From the NCBI RefSeq assembly GCF_058153355.1, contig NZ_CM177019.1: a stretch of 64,000 nt of DNA; one strand, 5' to 3'. Position 1 is the first letter of the stretch. Each line of letters starts with the position of its first letter. A program made the translations under genes and the position numbers. Below the pieces are notes generated by a model. The model did not search any database. It saw nothing but the letters and a program-made list of their open reading frames with translations, and was not told where the DNA came from. This document shows, piece by piece, positions 55,035 through 56,760 of the stretch.

Positions 55035-55480
55035 TCTTTAAAGAAGAGCTCGTACGAAAGTACGGGCTTTTTTTTTCGTATATTGCACACACCGGGGGGA
55101 TGAGAAGCCCCGACAGGGGTTCGACAACTGGCGACAGCCAGTTGGACAGACCGTGAACGCAGTGAGCGGGCTGCCCGCAGGGCGAGCGAAGCGAGTCAAT
55201 CCCCCCCTCACCGCCATCTTTAAAGAAGAGCTCGTACGAAGGTACGGGCTTTTTTTTCGTATATTGCACACACCGGGGGATGAAAAGCCCCGACCGGGGT
55301 TCGACAACTGGCGACAGCCAGTTGGACAGACCGTGAACGCAGTGAGCGGGCTGCCCGCAGGGCGAGCGAAGCGAGTCAATCCCCCCCTCACCGCCATCTT
55401 TAAAGAAGAGCTCGTACGAAGGTACGGGCTTTTTTTTCGTATATTGCACACACCGGGGATGAAAAGCCCTGACCGGGGTA
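55016..55480 (+). repeat. tandem direct repeat, ~181-bp unit x ~2.6, each unit beginning with the last 19 nt of serX
   Basis: aatccccccctcaccgcca occurs at 55016, 55198 and 55378; units near-identical apart from a few SNPs and homopolymer length; each carries a hairpin plus T-run terminator and a ggggttcga T-loop-like motif. Confidence 0.85.
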
Positions 55481-55485
55481 CTTAG

Positions 55486-56172
55486 TTAATGCAACGGTTC
55501 ACCCTTTGTCGCCGCGGCTAATGGGCGAATTTTGTCACGGGTATCCCAGACCGGAGGGATTTCATCCAATTTAGTGACAGAAGCTCGTACAAAAGGCACC
55601 CGTGCAATAGTCATAATCGTATTCAACCAACGGTCACGAATAATGCGATCTGCCCTTTCATGACTCGGATCATCCAGCTCAATAACACAGACTATTTTAT
55701 TGTTCTTCTTTGAAACCAGAACATAATCCATTGCCATTCCATTATAAATTGCAAAGAAACGCTTTCTTTCTTCTTCGCTAAACTCGGGTTGTTCTGGAAA
55801 GTTGATCAAGCGCCCCAGAGAGACCTGGCAATGGATATGGCAATAATGTCCAAACCATTTCTCCAGATTATCGAAATAGATTTTCTCACAACGCGTAATT
55901 AACCACTCTTTTCCTTCCAATAAAATGCCTTCGGCAACCATTCCCTGAAATAACTCATCTCGTTCTTGCCAACGAGAATCACGATAGGTTTTCTGCGGTG
56001 TATAGCTCCTTGTCGACGCCTTAACAGCAGGGGAAGTTGCAGATGAAGGGACTGGTTGCAATTTAGTGATGATTACCGATGAGGCAACTTTTCGGAGTGT
56101 CAATTTTCTGGCAACAGCAAAACCGGCGACAAATGCAATTGTCAAACAAGTTACAAAAACCATAAAGCTCAT
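55486..56172 (-). CDS. hypothetical membrane-anchored protein with DUF2726-like (restriction-endonuclease-like fold) C-terminal domain
   Basis: 228-aa ORF; N-terminal hydrophobic helix MSFMVFVTCLTIAFVAGFAVA; C-terminal MDYVLVSKKNNKIVCVIELDDPSHERADRIIRDRWLNTIMTIARVPFVR resembles the DUF2726 core as I remember it; visibly AT-rich. Confidence 0.6.
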   Translation of the reverse strand: MSFMVFVTCLTIAFVAGFAVARKLTLRKVASSVIITKLQPVPSSATSPAVKASTRSYTPQKTYRDSRWQERDELFQGMVAEGILLEGKEWLITRCEKIYFDNLEKWFGHYCHIHCQVSLGRLINFPEQPEFSEEERKRFFAIYNGMAMDYVLVSKKNNKIVCVIELDDPSHERADRIIRDRWLNTIMTIARVPFVRASVTKLDEIPPVWDTRDKIRPLAAATKGEPLH

Positions 56173-56721
56173 AATTAATCTTCACCTATCCATGTTGATT
56201 ATATTTCATTACTAACGCTACTCGCTGTAGCGAGTTACATGCCAACAATTCAACGATCCATATATAGTTAGTATCATGTTTTGATTATTACAACCATACC
56301 TATTTTGCCATTGCGGCTTGCCGTCCACAAAAAATAACAACACAAAATATTAGCCAAAGAATTAATTAAGATTAACCTGACATTTTTAATGTTATCCCTA
56401 AAAAATATAATCAGGGGAATGTATTCGGTGTTAATCAATCAGCCAAATTATGGTCCATTATTGATGGAACCTCATACGCAAAATTGGCACCAGACCTCCT
56501 GTACAGGTTGAATGGCTGAAAAAAGATAAGCAGATGCTCGCTTTTTGGGCTTCTGGAAGAAAAACTCTCCGCACTGGCGGTATTACACTGGTCTGGTGCT
56601 ATGACGACAAATGCCCGGTAAGAGTATCTAAACCTGAATTCATTTCAGCTTATCAACACGCTCAAAGTCGCCCCCTGAACGTTAACCTGAAGTGAAAATC
56701 TTTGCTGTTAATGAAATAAAA

Positions 56722-56750
56722 CAAAGCCCGGTTCGCCCGGGCTCTGCGCC
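56722..56750 (-). terminator. rho-independent terminator after phoH
   Basis: Minus-strand gcccgggcgaaccgggc hairpin followed by TTTGTTTTATTT. Confidence 0.6.
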
Positions 56751-56760
56751 GATAATACAC

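Follow-up and report, generated by a model that had tools for sequence, protein, structure and literature searches.

The 64,000-nucleotide stretch of DNA analyzed here, taken from contig NZ_CM177019.1 of NCBI RefSeq assembly GCF_058153355.1 and referred to as the window, carries between the tRNA gene serX and phoH a 1,238-bp cassette with a gene of the DUF2726 family, at the site where Escherichia coli K-12 has the poly-N-acetylglucosamine (PNAG) genes pgaDCBA and the diguanylate cyclase gene dgcT. We consider it likely, at roughly 85%, that the window holds the ancestral one of two mutually exclusive alternatives at this site, and that the pga cassette of K-12 is a derived island that replaced the DUF2726 gene. 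The original prediction, made from the letters of the window, had described the locus as a K-12 block that is missing. This framing was not supported, because 1,238 bp of the interval are absent from K-12, which points to a replacement, and because the compact form has orthologous counterparts in E. albertii and Salmonella.

The serX-phoH interval compared with K-12

The end of serX (55034) and the phoH stop (56761), located from the open reading frame (ORF) list and by ARAGORN, are separated by 1,726 bp (55035-56760). This agrees with the spacing of about 1.7 kb given in the original prediction, and the repeats, the DUF2726 gene and the roughly 590 bp of AT-rich sequence free of ORFs of 60 amino acids (aa) or more that it had listed for the interval were all found. 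The K-12 gene order it had given was right as well: MG1655 has the order phoH-pgaD-pgaC-pgaB-pgaA-dgcT-IS3D-ymdE-ycdU-serX-ghrA, and its phoH stop and serX are 11,508 bp apart. Outside the interval the window is collinear with K-12 1,078,512-1,149,500 apart from a single insertion sequence (IS), a 1,426-bp IS4, again as anticipated, and the flanks efeB/phoH and serX/ghrA/ycdXYZ/csg are conserved in K-12 order as judged by ORFs, the tRNA and collinearity.

The breakpoints were placed by BLAST against the K-12 locus. Window positions 54700-55478 (ghrA, serX and the repeats) match K-12 at 97.4% and positions 56718-57000 (the phoH 3′ end and terminator) at 96%, while positions 55479-56717 between them have no K-12 counterpart and occupy the site of K-12 1,086,100-1,096,960 (10,861 bp). 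On the phoH side divergence from K-12 begins directly past the phoH terminator, and on the serX side it begins inside the last repeat unit. The two alternative cassettes have GC contents of 40.5% and 44.8%, compared with 50.6% for the window. Since K-12 lacks the 1,238 bp at 55480-56717, the locus reads as a cassette replacement and not as a simple deletion.

The predicted absence of the pga/dgcT/ycdU block was borne out. K-12 PgaA-D, DgcT, InsF and YcdU gave no tblastn match within the 64-kb window, and blastn, tblastn and tblastx detected no similarity to pgaABCD, dgcT (ycdT), IS3D, ymdE or ycdU in the interval or the window. Decayed gene fragments, which had been envisaged for 56173-56760, were not recovered: tblastx against the K-12 block found no remnant of it in the spacer, and only the shared phoH terminator matched. 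In the other direction, tblastn with the DUF2726 protein against the K-12 and cryptic-clade loci found no DUF2726 remnant in pga haplotypes, with E values of at least 0.33.

Identity to K-12, measured per 500 bp, is mostly 91-96% (range up to 98%) on the phoH-efeBOU-putP side (56718-64000) and mostly 97-99% (range from 95%) on the ghrA-csg side (45000-55015). Although divergence is higher on the phoH/efe/putP side, it shows no clear gradient decaying away from the cassette. The lower phoH-side identity may be the footprint of an old, cassette-linked haplotype divergence or of separate recombination.

Outgroups, distribution and competing explanations

In a first outgroup scan, covering one genome per species, the type strain of E. 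albertii and Escherichia sp. MOD1-EC7003 turned out to encode the DUF2726 protein. Over window positions 47009-64000 the E. albertii contig gives a single collinear alignment at 88.6%, with the order efeUOB-phoH-spacer-DUF2726-repeats-serX-ghrA. A protein search recovered a full-length ortholog from Salmonella enterica (73% aa identity), in the context putA-putP-phoH-DUF2726-[IS]-RtT-like repeats-serX-ghrA-ycdX-ycdY-ycdZ-csgGFED; this context aligns collinearly with the window, with a nucleotide identity of 77-82%. The compact order is present in both E. albertii and Salmonella, and phoH-DUF2726-serX therefore predates the Escherichia-Salmonella split. As far as gene order and homology go, this indicates that the compact DUF2726 form is ancestral and the pga block the derived alternative; K-12, rather than the window strain, probably carries the derived state. 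MOD1-EC7003, a cryptic-clade genome, lacks efeUOB between putP and phoH (L004, 8221-8238 and 10711-20684), and no serX was found within 10 kb past the DUF2726 gene, where other ORFs (up to 758 aa) lie instead.

Of 5,426 complete E. coli genomes, 1,051 (19%) carry the 1,238-bp cassette, 378 of them in an allele group with 95-99% identity to the window and 673 in one with 90-95%, and K-12-type pgaDCBA matches 4,411, in accord with the strain-variable hotspot that had been predicted. Around 80 genomes in the collection have only a type of pga with 80-90% identity. A concatenated query of cassette and pga matches 5,418 genomes, from which it follows that 44 match both and 8 neither. The compact ghrA-to-phoH junction (coverage of at least 80%) was recovered from 930 genomes, and carriers of the cassette without it have something inserted between serX and the repeats.

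No more than 44 of the 1,051 cassette carriers have any pga match, so at least 96% are without pga altogether, and a strain with the DUF2726 haplotype is, judged by gene content, almost certainly unable to make PNAG. The original prediction had held that loss of pga would change biofilm capacity. Its functional half stands, in that the capacity for PNAG is presumably missing, but ‘loss’ probably has the direction backwards, since the outgroups are compact.

According to the sections of two reports that deal with this locus, a pga-less state at phoH-serX is already known. Goldstone et al. (2016, PMC4951805) describe the pgaABCD-ycdT-insEF-ymdE-ycdU region as island-like, with efeB/phoH and ghrA/ycdXYZ on its two sides, and find that 10-20% of phylogroup A strains lack it, a frequency similar to the 19% of genomes found here; Cimdins et al. 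(2017, PMC5635171) give strains Tob1, Fec101 and B-8638 as lacking pga and ycdT between phoH and csgG. The locus and flanks of this pga ‘region of genomic heterogeneity’ (PMC4951805, PMC5635171) are those of the window, from which the whole block is likewise absent. Those sections score the presence or absence of K-12 genes and make no mention of the content of the empty site or of outgroup evidence, and the DUF2726 gene filling the site is the only element that they leave without characterization.

We propose that E. coli has two alternative cassettes between the phoH terminator and the RtT-like array 3′ of serX. The 1.24-kb DUF2726 cassette with its AT-rich upstream region would have been inherited from before the Escherichia-Salmonella split, a pgaDCBA-dgcT island would have displaced it in an early Escherichia lineage, and IS3D, ymdE and ycdU would have joined the island later. 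Both cassettes would persist, and lineages presumably exchange them when the conserved flanks undergo homologous recombination. In a strain without PNAG and DgcT, as gene content suggests for this one, the biofilm matrix would rely on other components.

Several points weigh against this polarity. The genome CUPS SST 5/1 (NZ_CP184992.1, 9001-18334), labelled E. coli, has phoH-pgaDCBA-IS5-GGDEF-RtT-serX at the same site, with efeB to pgaA about 84% identical to K-12 and the GGDEF gene 76% identical to K-12 dgcT. Its locus is without ymdE/ycdU, and its flanks are about 91-92% identical to the window, by which it probably belongs to a cryptic Escherichia clade. The pga block thus appears to be old too, and both cassettes appear to have coexisted in the genus for long. 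With a pga copy in a cryptic clade, the polarity therefore rests on two outgroup species only, E. albertii and Salmonella enterica. On the serX side, the position of the junction within the repeat unit differs among the three haplotypes, by which a single origin of the replacement is not implied. Finally, the source genome was seen as its 64-kb window, and the population counts serve as a proxy from which we infer that pga is absent from the remainder.

Possible, although we think it doubtful, is a secondary loss by allelic replacement, in which recent ancestors bearing pga imported the short DUF2726 haplotype through recombination in the phoH and serX/ghrA flanks; if this is true, ‘loss of pga’ would hold for the lineage of the strain though the short haplotype is older. 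Both haplotypes exist within single phylogroups, such as phylogroup A with its 10-20% of strains without the block in the section of PMC4951805 concerned, which implies exchange or repeated events. The division of the cassette into two diverged allele groups (378 and 673 genomes) and the unequal identity of the two flanks to K-12, 91-98% for phoH/efe/putP and 95-99% for serX, also fit such an import. However, the complete genome nearest in its flanks, R32_14_1F (99.1%), is compact as well, which vertical descent explains equally well. No complete genome exceeds 99.2% in the flanks, so the collection does not include the strain itself.

That a K-12-like ancestor simply lost the 11-kb pga-dgcT-ycdU block, whether by an IS-mediated deletion or by illegitimate recombination, is refuted. 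A deletion cannot create 1,238 bp of unique sequence with an intact, constrained gene that has orthologs in E. albertii and Salmonella, and the window junction has no IS scar and no remnant of pga, dgcT, ycdU or pgaD. Secondary pga loss from a K-12-type haplotype was seen in two strains, and such deletions are IS-scarred and keep ycdU. Strain E8 (NZ_CP104526.1, 5320-7231) has an IS1-scarred pgaC and ycdU remnants, and its K-12-type pgaD breaks off at position 2769 of the K-12 locus (L001) and continues in frame into the 230 bp of the DUF2726-haplotype spacer that lie nearest phoH; this junction is the product of illegitimate recombination or of recombination between haplotypes. A misassembly had been allowed for by the original prediction. 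Repeats like those at 55016-55479 can confuse short-read assemblers, and the 180-bp units or an IS might have caused the pga region to be collapsed or skipped. We regard this as excluded, with next to no probability left to it, since 930 complete E. coli genomes, as well as other species, have the same compact junction and the sequence from the repeats to phoH is unique and contiguous.

If the DUF2726 cassette is the ancestral form, K-12 is not the ancestral reference at this locus, and ‘missing relative to K-12’ is not to be read as ‘lost’: about 1 in 5 complete E. coli genomes would carry the older phoH-DUF2726-serX order common to E. albertii and Salmonella. In biofilm or virulence prediction, a strain with the DUF2726 haplotype should be scored as PNAG-negative and DgcT-negative. 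We think it improbable that the DUF2726 cassette and the pga-dgcT island are two ancient alleles held across Escherichia species by balancing selection instead of drift plus recombination, with the function of the membrane-anchored DUF2726 protein trading off against biofilm formation driven by PNAG and cyclic di-GMP.

The DUF2726 gene and its AT-rich upstream region

The DUF2726 ORF matches Pfam PF10881 over residues 90-205 with 66.9 bits (cutoff 24.7; E = 1.8e-18). It is intact, with zero indels across six Escherichia sequences, and its ratio of nonsynonymous to synonymous substitution rates (dN/dS) is 0.11-0.34 (0.16 versus E. albertii). Identity to E. albertii is 88.6%, the same as that of the flanks. 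On these comparisons the gene appears to be under purifying selection.

An AlphaFold2 model of the protein (mean predicted local distance difference test score, pLDDT, 78.7; core above 90) comprises an N-terminal helix at residues 3-31, hydrophobic and then followed by basic residues, a disordered or low-confidence linker, and an alpha/beta domain. The helix is a predicted transmembrane anchor. The domain has a restriction-endonuclease-like alpha/beta core with conserved acidic residues, as expected of PD-(D/E)XK nucleases, and is predicted to adopt a Vsr/DUF559-like fold of that class. The Vsr/DUF559/homing-endonuclease branch of PD-(D/E)XK nucleases (Steczkiewicz et al. 2012, PMC3424549) contains the nearest known relatives of the fold, from which the DUF2726 protein differs by its N-terminal membrane anchor and disordered linker and by having no detectable sequence similarity to solved structures. 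PADLOC defence families gave no match to the protein at E values up to 1, and with no credible sequence match in the PDB either, the reading of it as an established defence gene or as related to a solved structure was rejected.

Distant DUF2726 homologs (37-52% identity) are found in conjugative elements, between TraG_N and an integrase, in Dickeya and another E. coli, and one in Erwinia lies directly upstream of a type VI secretion system vgrG-PAAR toxin cluster. From these contexts the phoH-linked copy may be a very old, fixed remnant of an element of the serX hotspot. A 1,450-bp contig of a Collinsella metagenome-assembled genome (JAIJJM010000775.1) is 96.8% identical to window positions 55484-56935, from the DUF2726 gene to the 3′ end of phoH; the contig is almost certainly a contaminant from E. 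coli in the Collinsella bin.

Upstream of the DUF2726 gene, the 588 bp at 56173-56760 have only internal ORFs of 40-54 aa, and none of 60 aa or more. The GC content is 37.6% over 56173-56717, versus 50.6% for the window, and the spacer is 76.6% identical to that of E. albertii. Two promoter-like sites, matched by consensus only, lie on the minus strand upstream of the DUF2726 start (56434-56407 and 56311-56284). The longest stop-free stretch in the spacer (76 aa, plus strand, end 56695) is positioned like the 3′ end of K-12 pgaD and is in frame with pgaD in strain E8. It was rejected as a pgaD relic, having no BLASTP similarity to K-12 or cryptic-clade PgaD. It has no Pfam, NCBIfam or PADLOC match, matches only E. 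coli entries annotated as ‘hypothetical, partial’ among 5.8 billion proteins, and its frame is broken by indels in E. albertii and other strains. We conclude from these comparisons that the stretch is non-coding.

Repeats 3′ of serX and neighbouring features

Each 180-bp unit of the array 3′ of serX, the sole tRNA gene detected by ARAGORN in the window, combines the final 19 nt of serX with a hairpin that has a T-run and with an RtT-like element (repeat families D1-D4). The sequence AATCCCCCCCTCACCGCCA is present in three exact copies in the array, versus 0.02 expected by chance. Full-length matches to the Rfam RtT model (RF00391) were obtained at 55080-55216 (41.7 bits) and 55259-55396 (39.9 bits), neither of which reaches the gathering score of 45 bits; the equivalent units in RefSeq relatives are annotated as ‘RtT sRNA’. 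By BLAST the array is homologous to K-12 1,096,961-1,097,583. As in the RtT repeats of the tyrT operon (RF00391), the units are tandem, about 180 bp long, 3′ of a tRNA gene and each opens with the tRNA 3′ end, but they follow serX and not tyrT. The number of units varies between strains (no full unit in the soil isolate SC434, about 2.6 in the window, about 3.5 in K-12), and the point within the unit at which the distal end of the array is truncated differs from haplotype to haplotype (window 55016-55479; L008 3828-4007; L001 13462-14084).

The serX pathogenicity island of CFT073 is a tRNA-linked island at this gene (PMC3855560). The window shares with such islands the tRNA hotspot and the repetition of the tRNA 3′ end downstream, but it has no integrase or mobile-element genes between serX and phoH, and its tRNA-end repeats are part of RtT-type tandem units, unlike the pair of attachment (att) sites bracketing a serX island. 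No integrase was found in 55035-56760, where the DUF2726 gene is the only ORF of at least 60 aa with family support. The serX 3′ end does not bracket the interval in the manner of attL and attR, the three exact copies being adjacent tandem units on the serX side only. An attR-like copy of the serX 3′ end at 56668-56681 was rejected, since it has 3 mismatches in 14 positions and 3.7 such matches are expected per window, which is chance level.

In the Shiga toxin-producing E. coli strain 2014C-3050 (NZ_CP027472.1, 174-3735), a tyrosine recombinase and prophage-like foreign DNA lie between serX and the RtT repeats. From this placement of the insert, integrative elements therefore use serX without disturbing the DUF2726 cassette.

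Table 1. Coordinates of features at and around the serX-phoH interval of the window
Feature	Position	Strand	Basis
ghrA (ycdW), conserved serX-side flank	53775-54752	-	ORF; annotation of matching E. coli records; K-12 collinearity
Sigma-70-like promoter 5′ of serX, TTGACC-17-TAAATT (putative function)	54884-54912	+	Consensus scan only
serX, tRNA-Ser(GGA)	54947-55034	+	ARAGORN; Rfam tRNA match, 53.8 bits
Tandem array of 180-bp units (about 2.6), bordering the variable cassette on the serX side	55016-55479	+	Repeat search
Haplotype-specific cassette, 1,238 bp	55480-56717		BLAST breakpoints versus K-12
DUF2726 gene, 228 aa	55486-56172	-	ORF; Pfam match
AT-rich non-coding spacer, 545 bp, presumed DUF2726 promoter region	56173-56717		GC content; promoter scan
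phoH intrinsic terminator, final phoH-side sequence common with K-12	56721-56747	-	Terminator scan; boundary alignment (K-12, cryptic-clade genome, window)
phoH, conserved flank	56761-57684	-	ORF; annotation of matching records; 96% identity to K-12 phoH
efeB	58187-59458	-	ORF list

The coordinates of the features are collected in Table 1. In RefSeq relatives phoH is annotated with a 262-aa product, equivalent to positions 56761-57549. The csgD and csgG ORFs are full-length in the window. The IS4 copy is inserted at 37622-39047, between opgH and yceK, and contains a 448-aa ORF (37635-38981, minus strand); the K-12 coordinates of its two flanks overlap by 13 bp (1,113,540-1,113,552), which fits a target-site duplication. 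Antisense to the 3′ part of phoH, positions 56766-56959 (plus strand) match the Rfam family Ysr251 (Yersinia sRNA 251) with 182.9 bits, which may merely reflect conservation of the phoH coding sequence. Between phoH and efeB, positions 58032-58179 contain elements of the repetitive extragenic palindromic (REP) type with an Rfam naRNA4 match of 63 bits, above the gathering score, and these are the counterpart of the REP95 region of K-12.
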